Below, in pieces: positions 58,947-63,259 of a DNA stretch of 64,000 nt (the stretch's first letter is position 1; every line of letters starts with the position of its first letter). Under the pieces are notes generated by a model, which saw nothing but the letters and a program-made list of their open reading frames with translations, had not been told where the DNA came from and searched no databases. Position numbers and translations under genes: made by a program. This stretch comes from Candidatus Danuiimicrobium aquiferis (lineage in GTDB: Bacteria > Omnitrophota > Omnitrophia > Omnitrophales > Danuiimicrobiaceae), in NCBI GenBank assembly GCA_001804285.1, contig MHFR01000037.1, forward strand, positions 149,952 to 213,951, written 5' to 3'.

Positions 58947-59714
58947 TCAAGTGGATTTGCGAGTCCAAATAGATAAATATGTTTTTTGATCTTCCCGGAA
59001 TGCTTGAATCGCCACGCTCGCTACGGATCGCGCATCCACCGGACTCATGCCACGCTCTACGAGCCGTTTAAAGATAGCGTCCGGATACAATGACAGATCC
59101 AACGACTGACGGCCTTTCCGCTCTTTCAGAAATTCAAGTCCCGAAACTTTGAATTTATTCAATAACCACCCCGGTTTTTCATTTTCCATATTAAAAAAAT
59201 CATGCGGTTGCCCGTCATCGACAAACAAAACAACCGAAGCATGCTCATTCTCGCTAATCAACTTATCTAAATCAAACGAGTTTGCTATCATTCCGGAAAA
59301 ATTCTGAAAATGGCTATTGCGCTTCGACATCCGGTCGAATTTATCACTGTTTCCGGCAATGCTTTTGAGTTTCAGCTTCCGCCCAAAATCCTTCCACTCA
59401 TTATTCCGGTTTTTATTCTTCTCAAGCGAAATCAAAATATCGTACGCCAGCATTCCCGCATCGTCTTGCACAATAGTCACATCAAACGATACGGGTTCTT
59501 TCCTCCGGGGTAATTCTTCTCGATAAAGATCAAATAATTGATTACAGACCATAGCACCAAAAGCCGGGGCGATTAATTGATACGGCGCTTCTTTAAAACG
59601 ATCCCGGATGGTTTCTGCTTCGCCAAAATTATCTTCAGGCAAGAGGAGGCTTGTAATAATAAAACAAAATAAAAATACAAACAAATATCGATGAGATATA
59701 AAAATTTTATTCAA
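58947..59714 (-). CDS. Hypothetical secreted protein
   Basis: A 255-aa ORF with a signal-peptide-like N-terminus (LFVFLFCFIITSLLLP). I recognise no domain. Confidence 0.5.
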   Translation of the reverse strand: MNKIFISHRYLFVFLFCFIITSLLLPEDNFGEAETIRDRFKEAPYQLIAPAFGAMVCNQLFDLYREELPRRKEPVSFDVTIVQDDAGMLAYDILISLEKNKNRNNEWKDFGRKLKLKSIAGNSDKFDRMSKRNSHFQNFSGMIANSFDLDKLISENEHASVVLFVDDGQPHDFFNMENEKPGWLLNKFKVSGLEFLKERKGRQSLDLSLYPDAIFKRLVERGMSPVDARSVASVAIQAFREDQKTYLSIWTRKST

Positions 59715-59729: not shown

Positions 59730-59787
59730 ATCAATTGATCGAGCGAACCCTGCCCAATTACTCTGCCAGGGTTCGCCTGAGCGTCAA
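59730..59787. repeat. Left copy of a 55-60 bp imperfect direct repeat containing a hairpin
   Basis: gcgaaccctg-cccaattactctgc-cagggttcgc, then ctgagcgtcaaccaatg. It aligns with 60545-60603. Confidence 0.7.
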
Positions 59788-59799
59788 CCAATGACGATT

Positions 59800-59953
59800 T
59801 ACTTCACGGTATTTGGCGAAATGCGAATGATTTTACCATTTTCCCATATCGATAGTGGTCGACCTGTTTTCTTATGACATTCAACGACTCCCCGCACCGC
59901 TTTTTTCAACGCCGCTTCAGCTTTATCCTGTAGAGACATTCTTTTTTTCATTT
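59800..59953 (-). CDS. Small 51-aa protein downstream of the kinase gene (below the track's size cutoff)
   Basis: My translation is MKKRMSLQDKAEAALKKAVRGVVECHKKTGRPLSIWENGKIIRISPNTVK. Its ATG overlaps the kinase stop. Confidence 0.45.
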
Positions 59954-59954
59954 A

Positions 59955-60530
59955 TTACCTCACGCTTCTTTGAACTATTTCGAACAAACCATCGTTAAGC
60001 ACTTCTCTATGGCCGTTGCGTCTTTTCGCAATTAGTATGGGTTTTGCCTTAGAGTTATCAAATAACATCCAGGAGTCAAGTAACGACTCGTACAGAGTGA
60101 AGAAATTATTGATGCCGCGGGCAAATCGCCTACGAACATCTTCGGCAGGTACATGATGCCCACCTTCCCGAACTCTTTCTTTAATACGGGCTATTGCCAA
60201 TTCTGCGATAGGAAGCCAGAGAAAGAAAAGATGCAGCGCATAACCTCTTGCCTTTAACTCAGTCAACAAGCCTACATAAGACTTACCGGATAAAGTCGTC
60301 TCAAAAGCAAAATCAACTCCATGTCCCGCATATTCATGAATTTGCTGTAGTACGAGCTTACCGGCTTTAATAGCCGCAGAGCGAGGCTCAAATGGAGATA
60401 GCCCCTTAGCGATAAGGTCAGCATTTACAAAATTAGGGCAATTCACATATTCGGGTAAAAACATCGTAGCAAATGTAGTCTTACCCGATCCGTTTGGCCC
60501 CGCAATAATATAAATTGCCTTACTTTTCAT
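59955..60530 (-). CDS. Zeta-toxin-like / AAA_33-type P-loop kinase
   Basis: Walker A GPNGSGKTT. An SD AAGGAAGG precedes the Met at 60530, so the track's 60563 start is probably too long. At about 191 aa it is typical of short zeta/UNAG-kinase-like toxins. Confidence 0.65.
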   Translation of the reverse strand: MKSKAIYIIAGPNGSGKTTFATMFLPEYVNCPNFVNADLIAKGLSPFEPRSAAIKAGKLVLQQIHEYAGHGVDFAFETTLSGKSYVGLLTELKARGYALHLFFLWLPIAELAIARIKERVREGGHHVPAEDVRRRFARGINNFFTLYESLLDSWMLFDNSKAKPILIAKRRNGHREVLNDGLFEIVQRSVR

Positions 60531-60544
60531 AACCTTCCTTATCC

Positions 60545-60603
60545 GCCCATCGAACCCTGACAATTACGCCTGCCATGGTTCGCCTGAGCGTCAACAATGG
60601 CGG
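60545..60603. repeat. Right copy of the 55-60 bp direct repeat, abutting the CCA end of the tRNA-like element
   Basis: cgaaccctgacaattacgcctgccatggttcgcctgagcgtcaacaatg. It aligns with 59730-59787. Confidence 0.7.
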
Positions 60604-60666
60604 GCAGAGGGGGATTTGAAGCCCCATGAGTTTCCTCATTGGATCCTAAGTCCAACGTGTCTGCCC
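60598..60666 (-). ncRNA. tRNA-like element lacking a D-arm, with anticodon-loop TAG, a variable arm, a T-arm, an acceptor stem and an encoded CCA
   Basis: The minus-strand fold is gggcaga-cacg-ttgga-cttagga-tccaa-tgaggaaactca-t-gggg-cttcaaat-cccc-c-tctgccc-g-cca. With no D-arm it is a pseudo-tRNA or a recombination-derived fragment, not a canonical tRNA. Confidence 0.4.
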
Positions 60667-60787
60667 TTGAGCTCCTTTATAAAATGTTTTTTGATAGTGG
60701 CTCAAGGACTGGTTTTAACTCCCTTATAAAATTACATATAGAAAGTCAAACCTGGCCGACTATCCATTAAATTTTTTGATAATTTTT

Positions 60788-60869
60788 TGCGGCGCGAGGG
60801 ACTTGAACCCCCAACCCTTGCGGGACAAGATCCTAAGTCTTGCGCGTCTGCCAATTTCGCCAGCGCCGC
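60788..60869 (-). tRNA. tRNA-Leu (anticodon TAG)
   Basis: gcggcgc-tg-gcg-aaattggcaga-cgc-g-caaga-cttagga-tcttg-tcccgcaagggtt-ggggg-ttcaagt-ccctc-gcgccgc-a, which has a class II variable arm. Confidence 0.85.
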
Positions 60870-60960
60870 AAGAAATTATCAAAAATCTATAATTTTCGGA
60901 AGTCGGCACTGTCCCAGCTTCCGATTGATATTCATTCTTCTATTTAAATGAACGCTGGGG

Positions 60961-60982
60961 CTGCCAATTTCGCCAGCGCCGC
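60961..60982 (-). pseudogene. Duplicated 5' fragment (acceptor and D-arm, 22 nt) of the tRNA-Leu gene
   Basis: ctgccaatttcgccagcgccgc is identical to 60849-60870 inside tRNA-Leu. The flanks are weakly similar, consistent with a duplication or recombination scar. Confidence 0.6.
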
Positions 60983-61132
60983 TAAAAATTCAACCGGAAT
61001 CAAGTGCACGCATCGGACTACGGATTCCTTAGCCGCTGCCGATGCAGTATTTTTTCATCGGAAAAAGTGCACGCGTCGGGAGTGACTTCAATAGTCACCC
61101 CCGGCGCCGTACTTAATTCAACCGGAATTAAG

Positions 61133-61205
61133 TGCGCCCTGAAGGATTTGAACCTTCGACCCACTGATTAAGAGTCAGTTGCTCTACCAACTGAGCTAAG
61201 GGCGC
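61133..61205 (-). tRNA. tRNA-Lys (anticodon CTT)
   Basis: gcgccct-ta-gctcagttggtagagc-a-actga-ctcttaa-tcagt-gggtc-gaagg-ttcaaat-ccttc-agggcgc-a. Confidence 0.9.
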
Positions 61206-61326: not shown

Positions 61327-62541
61327 TTGCCTAAATTACGATTCATAAAAAAACATAACGAATTTCAAATTGATTATTATAACAACGGAAAACGTGTCCG
61401 CCGATATCTTGGACCCGATAAGAAGCACGCCGAGGCTGAGCTTAAACGGGTTGACGCTCTGATCAAAGCCAAAAAATTGGGCTTCGAATTAACGCAAGTC
61501 CGACCAGCGAGCGAGTATAATACATCAACTCCCCCTATTTCTGCAACTCCTGATATCAAATTTTCAGCGGCTGACGGTGCCCAGCATATCTCAATCGCCA
61601 AAGCCATCGATATATACTTAGAAAGATGCAAAGGCGCGACTCAATCCAGAAATATGGCAGAAAAAACTTACGAATCCAAGACCTCTCTCCTTAAGCGTAG
61701 ATTTTCGGATTTCTTGCACAAAAAATTCCCGGAACTTAATTTTCTGGATGATATTCAAAAAGTACACATCGAAAGTTATCGGGCTTATCGGATCAATTCT
61801 CGACACAAGAACGCCCCAACAAGAAAAATCAAACCCACATCTTTTAATAATGATCTGCGCGAACTTATAGCTTTTTTCAATTACTGCATTGAAAATCCTA
61901 AGACTTTTTATATTTTCGTTAATCCTGCATCAAAAGTCGCCAAAGTCCAAAAAGCAGACCGAAATGAACGTCTCCCCTGTCTTTCCCCAGAGGAAATTAC
62001 ACAAGTGTTTAAAAAATGCAATGGCGACACTGAACTCAAAACGGTAATTGAAACATTCATTGAAACCGGCATGCGCTTCAATGAATTAAGAAACCTTCGC
62101 TGGGATGACGTTGATTTGTCGAAAAATGTGATGACGGTAAAGAGTCGCGACGAATTTATGACCAAAAGCAGAAAAAGCCGTACGATTCCAATTAGTCAAA
62201 GACTGCGCGAAATTCTTAAAGAGATCCCAAGGCGAAGTGAAAAAGTTTTTGAACTAAATAATGTCCAACGGATGAGCGCAAAAAAAGACAATCTTTGCAA
62301 CATCCGCAAACGCTTTGACCGGATTAAAAAACACCTTCCCTTTTTAAGGACCGGCGAACGTTTTCATATCTTCCGCCACACGGCTATCACCTTGTGGGCC
62401 AATTCCGGCGTTCCGCTTCCTGTCGTTCAAAAGTGGGCAGGACATTCAAGCATTGAAATGACCATGAAATATGTTCACCCTTCTGAAGAGGAAAGTGCGA
62501 AATGGATGAAAAAGTTCTCAGACACACAGCTCAACTCTTAA
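61327..62541 (+). CDS. Tyrosine-type site-specific integrase (phage integrase family)
   Basis: A 404-aa ORF with the C-terminal catalytic region HIFRHTAITLWANSGVPLPVVQKWAGHSSIEMTMKYVH (the H-x-x-R ... Y motif). It lies next to a tRNA gene. Confidence 0.85.
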   Translation: MPKLRFIKKHNEFQIDYYNNGKRVRRYLGPDKKHAEAELKRVDALIKAKKLGFELTQVRPASEYNTSTPPISATPDIKFSAADGAQHISIAKAIDIYLERCKGATQSRNMAEKTYESKTSLLKRRFSDFLHKKFPELNFLDDIQKVHIESYRAYRINSRHKNAPTRKIKPTSFNNDLRELIAFFNYCIENPKTFYIFVNPASKVAKVQKADRNERLPCLSPEEITQVFKKCNGDTELKTVIETFIETGMRFNELRNLRWDDVDLSKNVMTVKSRDEFMTKSRKSRTIPISQRLREILKEIPRRSEKVFELNNVQRMSAKKDNLCNIRKRFDRIKKHLPFLRTGERFHIFRHTAITLWANSGVPLPVVQKWAGHSSIEMTMKYVHPSEEESAKWMKKFSDTQLNS

Positions 62542-62609
62542 AAACTCTTAGAATTTGCATTTGACAACATGTTACTTATAAGCTACAATTCTAAATGTCG
62601 GGAGTACCG

Positions 62610-62936
62610 ATGAATTTTATTGAAATTCTTGTATATCGAACGGCTGACGGTAAAATACCGTATCAAAATTGGCTAGAATCCATCCGGGATGACCGGATGA
62701 GGACCCGCATACGGGTTCGGATTGATAGATTGCGGCTCGGTAATCTTGGTGATACTAAGAGCGTTGGACACGGTGTTCATGAATTAAGAATGCATTTTGG
62801 TCCAGGTTTTCGGGTTTATTTTGGATATGACGGCCAAACCATTGTTGTTTTATTATGTGGTGGTGACAAAAGCACTCAAAGCCGCGACATTGAAAATGCG
62901 TTACTTTATTGGAACGATTATAAATGGAGAAAATAA
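62610..62936 (+). CDS. HigB/RelE-ParE-superfamily toxin (addiction-module killer protein)
   Basis: The sequence family is FIEILVYRTADGKIPYQNWLESI...LGDTKSVGHGVHELRMHFGPGFRVYFGYDGQTIVVLLCGGDKSTQSRDIENA. An SD GGGAG precedes the Met at 62610. Confidence 0.7.
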   Translation: MNFIEILVYRTADGKIPYQNWLESIRDDRMRTRIRVRIDRLRLGNLGDTKSVGHGVHELRMHFGPGFRVYFGYDGQTIVVLLCGGDKSTQSRDIENALLYWNDYKWRK

Positions 62937-62938
62937 AA

Positions 62939-63259
62939 ATGAAACCTTATGTAAGTTATCATGATCTTTTAATGAGAGACCTCAAAGATCCAAAAGAAGC
63001 TCAAGGATATCTCAACGCAGCTTTGGAAGAGGGCGATGAAAAGCTTTTTTTAGTCGCTTTGAAAAATGTTTTGGATGCACGAGGAGGCTTATCTAAATTC
63101 TCAAGACAAACGAAGCTTAACCGTGTAAGTCTGTACCGGATGTTATCGCGGCAAGGCAATCCGGAATGGGCGAGCATTATCTCTCTACTGCGCGCTTTGG
63201 GCATTCAATTTCGGTTAACTGGTAAAAAGCCGACTACGCTCCACAAAAAAGCAGCGTAA
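62939..63259 (+). CDS. HigA-like HTH antitoxin (addiction-module antidote protein)
   Basis: It starts 3 nt after the toxin stop. The HTH segment is LSKFSRQTKLNRVSLYRMLSRQGNPEWASIISLLRALG, and the N-terminal YLNAALEEGDEKLFLVALKNV is typical of HigA partners of Gp49/HigB-type toxins. Confidence 0.65.
   Translation: MKPYVSYHDLLMRDLKDPKEAQGYLNAALEEGDEKLFLVALKNVLDARGGLSKFSRQTKLNRVSLYRMLSRQGNPEWASIISLLRALGIQFRLTGKKPTTLHKKAA

Follow-up and report, generated by a model that had tools for sequence, protein, structure and literature searches.

Repeats around a zeta-toxin-family kinase cassette in an Omnitrophota genome are probably arms of large serine recombinase elements inserted at tRNA 3' ends

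The window, that is, the whole 64-kb stretch of DNA analyzed here, contains a P-loop kinase gene and a small open reading frame (ORF) that lie between two hairpin-containing direct repeats, next to a tRNA-like element without a D-arm (Table 1). An earlier note on this DNA had placed exactly two genes inside the repeats; this was indeed the case, both genes being on the minus strand, except that the small ORF encodes 50 aa and not 51 aa. The kinase has the Walker A motif GPNGSGKTT and more than 8,000 homologues, the top 120 of which are 79 to 91% identical to it and the named ones of which come mostly from Omnitrophota metagenome-assembled genomes (MAGs). No notable PADLOC, NCBIfam, or PDB sequence match of the kinase was obtained beyond Pfam Zeta_toxin. 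Of 57 related loci, nearly all have the 50-aa ORF directly behind the kinase; this ORF had no family match in Pfam, NCBIfam, or PADLOC. It is apparently translationally coupled to the kinase and is presumed to be its conserved partner, an antitoxin, with which the kinase would form a toxin-antitoxin module. The right boundary of the module consists of the last codons of the 50-aa ORF and TAAATCGTCA; in relatives, the stop codon of this ORF is followed by (N)CCGCCA, beyond which the sequences diverge. The 255-aa ORF on the other side of copy B had no match in Pfam, NCBIfam, or PADLOC and was confined to contigs of the same species. It belongs either to the host or, as cargo, to an older element that has lost its right end; no canonical right-end motif was found between this ORF and tRNA-Gly.

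Table 1. Features of the kinase cassette and its surroundings, with positions in the 64-kb window
Feature	Positions	Strand	Remarks
255-aa ORF	58947..59714	-	Downstream of copy B; hydrophobic N-terminus
Repeat copy B	59744..59796	-	CGTCATTGG, then half-site TTGACGCTCAGGCGAACC and hairpin as in copy A
50-aa ORF	59799..59951	-	Begins 3 nt past the kinase stop codon
Zeta-toxin-family P-loop kinase, 191 aa	59955..60530	-	Pfam Zeta_toxin PF06414, E 6e-10; AAA_33; putative cargo gene
Repeat copy A	60551..60594	-	Half-site TTGACGCTCAGGCGAACC, then hairpin; reaches into the kinase ribosome-binding site
Junction hexamer CCATTG	60595..60600	-	Between G73 of the tRNA-like element and the conserved motif
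tRNA-Leu(TAG)-like putative pseudogene	60598..60666	-	No D-arm; ends in G73-CCA; adjoins the upstream repeat (copy A)
Tyrosine integrase	61327-62541	Divergent from the tRNA-like element	Phage_integrase, E 2e-29; ~660 bp from the tRNA-like element

The direct repeats (59744-59788 and 60551-60595) align without gaps over 45 nt at 82% identity. Both contain the exact 19-mer GGTTCGCCTGAGCGTCAAC, which occurs nowhere else in the window and for which 0.02 matches would be expected there by chance, even with 3 mismatches. A third copy was found in the 64 kb neither with an nhmmer profile of the repeat nor in a search that allowed up to 3 mismatches, and a genome-wide repeat of the REP or MITE type was ruled out on the basis of these two copies. 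That two hairpin repeats bracket the cassette, each with its own inverted repeat (CGAACCCTG ... CAGGGTTCG or CATGGTTCG), thus held far beyond chance, and the earlier concern that they might be copies of a common genome-wide repeat was dispelled by the mismatch and profile searches. The hairpin of copy A is made up of CGAACCATG, a 14-nt loop with AATT, and CAGGGTTCG, and the right arm of copy B extends into CAGGGTTCGCTCGATCAA, which repeats the half-site imperfectly in inverted orientation. The two-copy arrangement recurs in two other cases (L005/L094 and L011) and partly in a third (L001). Copies within a locus were more alike than copies from different loci, copies A and B of L005 being identical over 52 bp.

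Read on the minus strand, the tRNA-like element has a perfect 7-bp acceptor stem (GGGCAGA/TCTGCCC), an anticodon arm with the loop CTTAGGA, a long variable arm, and a T-arm, and the CCA-ended structure without a D-arm was present as the earlier note had described it. In covariance-model scoring, a check that the same note had proposed, the Rfam tRNA score of 28.8 bits (E 0.003) was just under the gathering score of 29, and in the Rfam alignment 15 D-arm model positions were reduced to 1 nt and positions 53:61 formed a C.C mismatch. The G53-C61 pair is universal in tRNA. ARAGORN did not call the element under bacterial or mitochondrial settings. In a strain contig that was otherwise 99.7% identical (L186), the T-loop TTC was AAA, at a site near the contig end. 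The element accordingly lacks the marks of a functional tRNA in its D-arm, its 53:61 pair, its score, and the constancy of its T-loop between strains. When 16 nt were put back between two GGCAGA repeats, ARAGORN called a tRNA-Leu(tag). In the element as it stands, the distance from T-loop to motif is 27 nt, as in 35 of 36 real tRNAs located upstream of the motif. The D-armless element is therefore best read as a decaying, pseudogenized tRNA-Leu(TAG) gene and not as a designed structure, because one 16-nt deletion between two GGCAGA direct repeats would produce its shape; under this deletion model the intact target tRNA-Leu would begin GGGCAGATG. We read the element as the putative remnant of the tRNA that served as insertion target, which would make it the left half-site, of attB type.

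Alternatively, the element might be an RNA that functions together with the kinase (as a decoy or substrate, if the zeta-like kinase acts on tRNA, or as an RNase P processing signal for the cassette mRNA) or a minimalist tRNA. It has a perfect acceptor stem, anticodon and variable arms, G73-CCA, and a near-threshold covariance score, folds better than shuffled sequence (-26.9 kcal/mol; z = -2.4), and lies on the same strand as the kinase, directly upstream of it. We nevertheless consider such a role highly improbable. In relatives, the kinase is preceded by an ordinary tRNA-Ser or tRNA-Asp, by tRNA fragments, or by nothing tRNA-like, and neither a homologue nor an intact orthologue of the element was found in any of the other loci examined. 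Moreover, the broken universal pair, the T-loop change in a near-identical strain, the sufficiency of a single deletion between direct repeats, and an intact tRNA-Leu(TAG) only 120 bp away all argue for decay.

A total of 76 distinct related loci were used to assess the position of the motif relative to tRNA genes. In 36 of them, TTGACGCTCAGGCGAACC and its hairpin were located 3 to 6 nt 3' of an intact tRNA (30 tRNA-Ser, 4 tRNA-Gln, 1 tRNA-Arg, and 1 tRNA-Asp). In most of the remaining 40, the motif was preceded by a tRNA 3' fragment or a look-alike half-site, and about 21 of these 40 had no recognizable GTTCR block upstream of it. The junction hexamer was CCATTG in 50 of the 76 loci. The earlier proposal of an att-site arrangement with a tRNA-derived target was upheld by this association of a motif family with tRNA 3' ends, but the repeats do not represent a duplicated tRNA-derived core such as tyrosine integrases leave behind, as they start 3' of the CCA. 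The genes behind the motif varied (Bro-N-like in 27 loci, kinase in 14, large serine recombinase [LSR] in 10, and methyltransferase in 4). In seven distinct loci, the inside sequence was 78 to 92% identical over ~900 nt, and the upstream flanks of the same loci had no similarity or only short matches of 23 to 97 nt. The spacing from GTTCR to motif was 27 nt in tRNAs versus 32 nt in element-type half-sites, a difference of 5 nt that we take to be the one between attP and attB in the published structural model of LSRs.

Twelve LSR-less elements of 1.0 to 6.5 kb end in the inverted half-site GGTTCGCCTGGCGTCCACGACTACCCG(CCA), which is followed by unrelated flank. In related elements the right end is ...ACCCG, after which comes either CCA or a T-rich trailer of the host; the CCATTG of the left junction is therefore element-borne. 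Complete palindromic sites were present in L061, L073, L164, L072, L124, and L127, tandem cassettes in L120 and L142, and relatives such as L171, L081, and L152 were bounded by one attL and one attR. The element-type left flanks of L080, L144, and L015 are only partly explained; no prophage genes were found upstream of them. Two further candidates were set aside: the likeness of the motif to the Tn3 inverted repeat, TGACGCTCAG..GGAAC, was judged coincidental, and acceptor-like pairing at the RNA level in the canonical right end was not convincing and was dropped.

The motif was also linked to an LSR gene. The gene for this recombinase (roughly 550 aa; domains Resolvase, Recombinase, and Zn_ribbon_recom) lies directly next to the motif in about a dozen loci from metagenomes, and the order tRNA, motif, LSR was found in all nine IMG/VR viral contigs with the 18-mer motif. 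The LSR reading frame passes through the motif, which is physically part of the 3' end of the gene, and a T-run comes after the hairpin in the LSR-bearing elements, an arrangement that resembles an intrinsic terminator of the tRNA. The LSR-bearing elements also contain genes that, judged by sequence, are SNF2-, VRR-NUC-, primase-, and ParB-like. Neither kinase nor Bro-N cargo was present inside LSR-bearing loci in the DNA examined, and no recombination directionality factor was identified. The linked LSR, the imperfect palindrome of ~50 bp with one half-site at each end, and the sharp boundary without a long target duplication are those of an LSR site, although the window copy has no cognate recombinase within the 64 kb (tblastn with the LSR).

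The earlier note had instead pointed to the neighboring tyrosine integrase, which would recombine a mini-element with the repeats as attL/attR cores and the tRNA-like element as target. The integrase is a bona fide Phage_integrase protein, close to the tRNA-like element and in a region full of tRNA fragments. However, tblastn yielded no close homologue of it in ~180 motif- or kinase-bearing loci, the sole matches being those in L100/L167 (26% identity) and a short fragment in L155, whereas the LSR co-occurs with the motif and has it in its own gene. In addition, repeats that begin after the CCA are not a duplicated tRNA segment, and the integrase lies on the 5' side of tRNA-Lys with toxin-antitoxin cargo of its own. 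We therefore attach very little probability to the tyrosine integrase as the recombinase of this site.

The repeats might also be cis-regulatory or RNA elements (promoter/operator, terminator, or mRNA-stabilizing hairpin) that were duplicated at two adjacent transcription units and have no mobility today. TTGACG is similar to a -35 hexamer, 3 of the 10 pairs in the conserved hairpin stem show compensatory changes, the T-run behind the hairpin in LSR-bearing elements is terminator-like, and copy A enters the ribosome-binding site of the kinase and copy B precedes the 255-aa ORF. Nevertheless, the best-conserved block of the repeat is the unpaired 5' part TTGACGCTCAGG and not the stem, this block is always placed relative to a tRNA 3' end or look-alike, and a matching inverted half-site is present at the far end of each element. 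A purely regulatory origin is thus unlikely in our view; a role of the hairpin as terminator is compatible with the repeats being LSR arms and does not compete with it.

Taken together, these results make it likely that the repeats are arms of LSR elements inserted just 3' of tRNA genes and that the cassette is recombinase-less cargo. Each repeat would comprise the element-borne, recombinase-proximal arm of an LSR attachment site plus a hairpin. Because the LSR is co-located with the motif, we infer that it catalyzes the insertion of these elements, which takes place directly behind the 3' end of tRNA genes, in Omnitrophota and neighboring lineages. Autonomous members are prophage-like; their LSR is encoded on the opposite strand, in a frame that continues through hairpin and motif into the antisense of the tRNA. 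The full element site is an imperfect palindrome, consisting of GGGTTCGCCTGGCGTC, a spacer of ~20 nt that ends in ...ACCCGCCATTG, and TTGACGCTCAGGCGAACCC, the left half of which imitates the T-arm and the 3' strand of the acceptor of a tRNA; crossover at or just 5' of G73 would then join the tRNA to the element-borne CCATTG and motif. Many members have no recombinase and consist of cargo only, which may be the zeta kinase with its partner, a Bro-N-like gene, or a methyltransferase. The cassette of the window would be such a cargo module, now with the target tRNA on one side and an older copy of its arm on the other, and the target tRNA, redundant with the intact tRNA-Leu(TAG) nearby, would have decayed and lost its D-arm through the 16-nt deletion between the two GGCAGA repeats. 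The same arm is present on both sides of the cassette, which has no canonical right end and no standard attL/attR pair; with neither such an end nor an LSR in the window, the cassette may be immobile. Since LSRs do not duplicate their target, something else must account for the internal tRNA fragments of arrays such as L120; a cluster of tRNA-Ser targets that decayed later is one possibility.

Comparison with sister genomes had been expected to reveal an empty site without the segment 59790-60545. No such site was found in 23 to 24 contigs, all of the same species and retrieved because they encode a protein identical to the kinase or to the product of the 255-aa ORF; the cassette was present wherever upstream DNA sufficed. 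In a 700-nt contig (L189), the end of the small ORF was joined to copy A, which suggests a circle or tandem junction. The crossover implied by this contig falls inside the 18-bp motif and not at the presumed LSR core and hence points to homologous recombination, tandem duplication, or a variant strain and not to LSR action.

Imperfect palindromes of 50 to 60 bp that bracket a promoter-poor toxin-antitoxin cassette, with hairpins in direct orientation, with copies more alike within than between loci (as in L005), and with tandem cassettes (L120 and L142), are reminiscent of integron-like cassette arrays or of IS200/IS605-type (PATE) elements, the hairpin ends of which are recognized as single-stranded DNA. 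The consensus boxes of attC, R'' and R', are RYYYAAC...GTTRRRY. The palindrome GTTGACG...CGTCAAC, however, has the reverse polarity and is off consensus, no IntI gene was linked to the motif, and HUH transposases were absent from the largest shared ORF clusters of the loci. Moreover, the elements insert exclusively at tRNA 3' ends, and their far end consists of an inverted half-site, as is typical of sites that recombinases recognize as double-stranded DNA. We give hardly any credence to either mechanism.

A broader reading that builds on the LSR arms is more tentative, and we hold it to be possible at best. Recombinase-less cassettes docked at tRNA 3' ends may form an integron-like economy in Omnitrophota and their neighbors, with toxin-antitoxin, restriction-modification, and Bro-N-like cargo that a prophage-borne LSR would move in trans. 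Taken as a whole, this reading would make any tRNA ending in ...CCG(CCA) a landing pad, via the tRNA-mimicking element site; would have the shared 50-bp arm allow shuffling, duplication, and loss by homologous exchange, as L189 suggests; and would see the second half-site of the kinase module in the 3' end of the 50-aa ORF (TTCGCC-N16-CGCCA, in register with the canonical half-site).

Judging from its sequence, the locus in the window is a scar of the ordinary kind that mobile elements leave and represents neither a new type of RNA nor a new system, and annotators should not call a novel RNA at the D-armless element. It may serve as an example of how an element that brings its own G73-CCA could render a tRNA gene redundant and let it decay. 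The comparison of loci defines the attachment site, the target rule, and the boundaries of a widespread family of LSR elements in a poorly studied, uncultivated phylum and indicates that small defense and toxin-antitoxin cassettes travel with the same attachment site. The naturally occurring pairs of sites, each made up of a tRNA 3' end and a palindrome of 54 bp, are candidate serine-integrase tools.

Close analogues of this element family have already been described. The ssrA-specific islands of Dehalococcoides carry DsiB, a serine recombinase of ~540 residues, on the reverse strand directly beside attL (McMurdie et al. 2011, PMC3146451). Their target is the tRNA-like gene for tmRNA, in which they insert at the T-loop/3' region and downstream of which they lie in tandem, and fifteen islands without an integration module were interpreted as cis-mobilizable elements (PMC3146451). 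The Omnitrophota family resembles them in recombinase size, gene arrangement, tRNA-like target, and the existence of recombinase-less members. In contrast to the Dehalococcoides islands, it targets ordinary tRNA genes (Ser, Gln, Arg, Asp, and Glu), its crossover would be at the discriminator and not in the T-loop, it has no 20-bp direct repeat of the target, the repeated unit being the arm of the element itself, no small second serine recombinase was seen, and its cargo is of the defense or toxin-antitoxin type.

Cis-mobilizable elements (CIMEs), reviewed together with accretion at ICE/IME attachment sites, are cargo regions that are bounded by attachment sites, lack recombination and transfer genes, and depend on the recombinase of a related element; their definition comes from streptococcal ICEs with tyrosine integrases (PMC5704250). 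The related LSR-less elements are like CIMEs in having both ends, whereas the cassette of the window falls outside the definition, with the same arm on both sides in place of attL plus attR. The tycheposons of Prochlorococcus integrate at tRNA genes, older ones being pushed inward, and their islands contain partial tRNAs and degenerate elements, adaptive or defensive cargo, and tandem-repeat junctions that are detectable in populations (bioRxiv 10.1101/2020.12.28.424599). Most of them have tyrosine recombinases and flanks of partial tRNA repeats, and a minority have large serine recombinases (bioRxiv 10.1101/2020.12.28.424599). The Omnitrophota family, by comparison, is flanked by element arms and has an LSR as its recombinase, the gene of which extends across the site.

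With regard to cargo, the kinase module resembles zeta/epsilon (PezAT) systems in combining a Zeta_toxin P-loop kinase with a small coupled partner ORF on mobile DNA; it differs from them in its order, with the kinase first and the small ORF second, and in a partner that is unlike epsilon or PezA. With regard to the recombinase, the architecture of Resolvase, Recombinase, and zinc ribbon is that of phage-type serine integrases (the phiC31, Bxb1, and A118 class), and the element site, an imperfect palindrome of ~54 bp, is also as for phage-type large serine integrases. Classical members of that class target protein-coding genes and not tRNA 3' ends; in the Omnitrophota family, unlike in these integrases, the left half-site of the element mimics the T-arm of a tRNA.

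The kinase and the 50-aa ORF lie between two hairpin repeats, copies A and B, and all particulars of the repeats, of the genes between them and of the tRNA-like element in the earlier note were confirmed. The repeats (45 nt, 82% identity) share an exact 19-mer, for which 0.02 matches are expected in 64 kb; it was found nowhere else in the 64-kb window, and a profile search of the window yielded no third repeat copy. Each repeat opens with a conserved half-site (the motif). Kinship of this motif (TGACGCTCAG-GCGAAC, window 60577-60594 and relatives) with the Tn3 terminal inverted repeat, GGGGTCTGACGCTCAGTGGAACG, was considered and rejected, the likeness being judged coincidental.

Features of the cassette and its surroundings, all but the tyrosine-integrase island read on the minus strand and in minus-strand order
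Feature	Position in window	Strand
tRNA-Lys	61205-61132	minus
Duplicated short pieces (tRNA-Lys/tRNA-Leu spacer and first 22 nt of tRNA-Leu)	between tRNA-Lys and tRNA-Leu	minus
tRNA-Leu(tag), intact	60870-60787	minus
tRNA-like element	60666-60598	minus
CCATTG	between tRNA-like element and copy A	minus
Repeat copy A	60594-60551	minus
Zeta_toxin-family kinase, 191 aa	60530-59955	minus
50-aa ORF, start 3 nt past kinase stop	59951-59799	minus
CGTCATTGG	between 50-aa ORF and copy B	minus
Repeat copy B	59788-59744	minus
255-aa ORF, no family match	after copy B	
tRNA-Gly, then tig, clpP	after 255-aa ORF	
Gp49/HigB-like toxin, tyrosine-integrase island	62595-62936	
HI1420/HigA-like antidote, same island	62924-63259	

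The surrounding tRNA region carries further repeats. At 60961-60990 and 61101-61135 there are orphan tRNA-Leu starts, 22 nt long and joined to 8 nt of upstream sequence (93% identical to 60848-60877), together with a further copy of the tRNA-Lys/tRNA-Leu spacer (80% identical); these are signs of repeated rearrangement or insertion 5' of tRNA-Leu, separate from the cassette. A 23-nt inverted repeat (60773-60795/60863-60885, 96% complementary) brackets the intact tRNA-Leu(tag) and adds about 16 bp to its acceptor stem (TTTTTGATAATTTCTT-tRNA-AAAAAATTATCAAAAA); it may act as a stem in precursor processing or mark the two ends of a small inserted unit. An imperfect 20-nt hairpin (60665-60707, 75% complementary, 3-nt loop) lies directly 5' of the tRNA-like element, and a related 19-mer occurs twice, 47 nt apart (60667-60685 and 60714-60732).

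An 18-mer scan of metagenomes gave 119 loci, roughly a quarter of which were chance matches within GC-rich genes; after deduplication, and with the window and the motif-bearing genome loci counted in, 76 distinct true motif loci were retained. An intact tRNA ended 3 to 6 nt ahead of the motif in 36 of the 76 (30 Ser with four anticodons, 4 Gln, 1 Arg and 1 Asp), most of the remainder had a tRNA 3' fragment or a tRNA-resembling half-site at this place, and CCATTG was the junction hexamer in 50. The gene adjoining the motif varied by locus, being most commonly Bro-N-like (MNKEITTTKIAIFRKREIRK...) and elsewhere the kinase pair, a DNA methyltransferase or others. Seven distinct Bro-N elements were 78 to 92% identical across about 900 nt inward from the motif, and their upstream flanks had no similarity or only short matches (23 to 97 nt).

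Behind the motif, about a dozen loci encoded on the opposite strand a protein of 540 to 600 aa whose Resolvase, Recombinase and zinc-ribbon domains identify it as a large serine recombinase (LSR). All nine IMG/VR viral contigs with the 18-mer had the order tRNA (Ser, Gln, Arg or Glu), motif, LSR, and by eye the genes behind the LSR looked SNF2-, VRR-NUC-, primase-polymerase- and ParB-like. The LSR frame extends across hairpin and motif, where it encodes ...EQGSPERQQWRRGRDSNP, and from there enters the tRNA antisense, so the element site sits within the 3' end of the LSR gene. We infer that the LSR catalyzes recombination of these elements; none is present in the window. The tyrosine integrase at 61327, raised earlier as a possible partner of the cassette, did not hold up in this role, since it had no close relative in the motif or kinase loci, where the only matches were a short fragment in one locus and sequences of 26% identity in two others. 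This 404-aa protein belongs to an island 5' of tRNA-Lys (61327-63259), separate from the cassette.

Twelve LSR-less elements terminated 1.0 to 6.5 kb downstream in an inverted half-site, GGTTCGCCTGGCGTCCACGACTACCCG; beyond it came either CCA and then unrelated flank or, with nothing in between, a T-rich trailer. Both halves occurred together as GGGTTCGCCTGGCGTC - CACGACTACCCGCCATTGT - TGACGCTCAGGCGAACCC in L061, L073 and L164, and a tRNA-Gln-specific variant of the full site was found in L072, L124 and L127. The two-half site, an approximately 54-bp palindrome, is built like the element site of a serine integrase, and its left half resembles a tRNA T-loop (GGTTCG) with an acceptor 3' strand and GCCA. 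The sequence at left junctions is CCG-CCATTG and at matching right ends often CCCG followed by host trailer without CCA, so CCATTG is probably supplied by the element and the crossover probably lies at or just 5' of G73. In 35 of 36 real tRNAs, 27 nt separated the GTTCR block from the motif, and in 11 element-type left flanks the distance was 32 nt; in a published structural model of LSRs, the zinc-ribbon motif of attP reportedly sits some 5 bp farther outward than that of attB.

Eleven loci (L080, L083, L086, L090, L095, L171 and others) shared a left flank of the form GTTCGAAC-N17-(C)ACCGCCATTG, located about 35 nt upstream of the motif; its middle varies, and its block stands 32 nt from the motif. 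Neither a tRNA nor prophage genes were found upstream of these flanks, which may represent another kind of element half-site or a target other than a tRNA. The tRNA-Gln-specific subfamily (L072, L124, L127, L197 and L198) had the junction ...GGGCAGCCAACC joined to TTGACGC, an LSR about 58% identical, the far-end half-site GGTTCGTCTGGCGTC and cargo that, going by its ORF sequences, appears Fic-like. In L164 (oriented, 8232-8310), an "empty" unit consisted of a tRNA fragment, the motif, a 17-nt loop and the inverted half-site, ending ...ACCCGCCA, without cargo between the halves; it may be a deleted-element footprint or a minimal site pair. Arrays such as L120 contained internal tRNA fragments.

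The stem 3' of the motif was conserved, with compensatory changes in 3 of 10 pairs, and its right arm doubles as an incomplete copy of the half-site in inverted orientation. In LSR-bearing elements the hairpin is long and followed by a T-run, and thus probably terminates read-through from the tRNA; in the cassettes the T-run is lost.

The kinase had thousands of relatives, the best 120 being 79 to 91% identical and the named ones mostly from Omnitrophota MAGs. In many of the 60 genome loci fetched, the kinase lay directly 3' of a tRNA-Ser or tRNA-Asp gene or a tRNA 3' fragment, and in about 15 loci ...CTCTCCGCCATTG joined to TTGACGCTCAGGCGAACCCTG-loop-CAGGGTTCGC preceded it. Its pairing with the 50-aa ORF was constant among related loci, and the two are presumably a toxin-antitoxin pair. 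Past the stop of the small ORF, relatives read (N)CCGCCA before their flanks diverge; speculatively, the 3' end of the ORF itself (TTCGCC-N16-CGCCA) acts as a half-site.

The tRNA-like element aligned end to end with the Rfam tRNA model at 28.8 bits (gathering score, 29), with 1 nucleotide standing in for fifteen D-arm positions and C.C as loop-closing pair 53:61; ARAGORN made no tRNA call for it. The segment from D-loop to anticodon in the neighboring tRNA-Leu matches the 5' part of the element (GGCAGACACGTTGGACTTAGGATC) at 83% identity, and the element's GGGCAGA pairs perfectly with the 3' strand TCTGCCC, which together fit a tRNA-Leu(TAG) copy with a deletion. The ancestral copy would have carried the same hexamer in the acceptor 5' strand (GGGCAGA) and the D-loop (TTGGCAGA), and the 16 nt between these would have been lost; when a hypothetical TGGTGAAATTGGCAGA was reinserted, ARAGORN called a normal 85-nt tRNA-Leu(tag). 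Where the window has TTC in the T-loop, contig L186, from a strain with 99.7% identity over 2 kb, has AAA, and no other fetched locus contained a homologue of the element. On these grounds the element is probably a pseudogene; an intact orthologue was not found among the fetched loci. It might be speculated that the G73 of the integrative element, in replacing the discriminator, inactivated the tRNA-Leu copy.

Copy A and the tRNA-like element have the form of an attL (tRNA-type spacing, CCATTG, motif). Ahead of copy B there is only CGTCATTGG and the small-ORF end, as in related loci L005/L094, L011 and L001, and the canonical right end of the element family is absent from the window cassette. 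On the simplest reading, the kinase module has the target tRNA on one side and, on the other, a copy of the same arm that is older. A 700-nt metagenome contig from a different sample (L189, 1-700) runs from the last 21 nt of the small-ORF region through the motif and a copy-A-type loop into the kinase, and its small-ORF end carries the copy-B-type CGTCATTGG; such a join would come from an excised circle or a tandem duplication of the cassette. The implied point of exchange falls within the 18 identical bases, away from the inferred LSR core, and so points to homologous exchange between the two repeats, or to a variant strain, rather than to LSR action. The empty site that the earlier note proposed to look for was not found in same-species contigs.

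The closest described case to the Omnitrophota LSR family is that of the Dehalococcoides ssrA islands, in which a 540-residue serine recombinase is encoded on the reverse strand beside attL, insertion is into the tRNA-like end of tmRNA and islands stand in tandem; fifteen islands without an integration module were read there as cis-mobilizable elements (PMC3146451). Tycheposons, elements of Prochlorococcus, show the same island-building at tRNA genes and the same tandem junctions, within populations, with LSRs in a minority (bioRxiv 10.1101/2020.12.28.424599). Three traits set the Omnitrophota family apart from known systems: insertion beside ordinary tRNA 3' ends, a crossover that would lie at the discriminator, and a recombinase gene that spans the site; its mechanism is already known in kind and not new.
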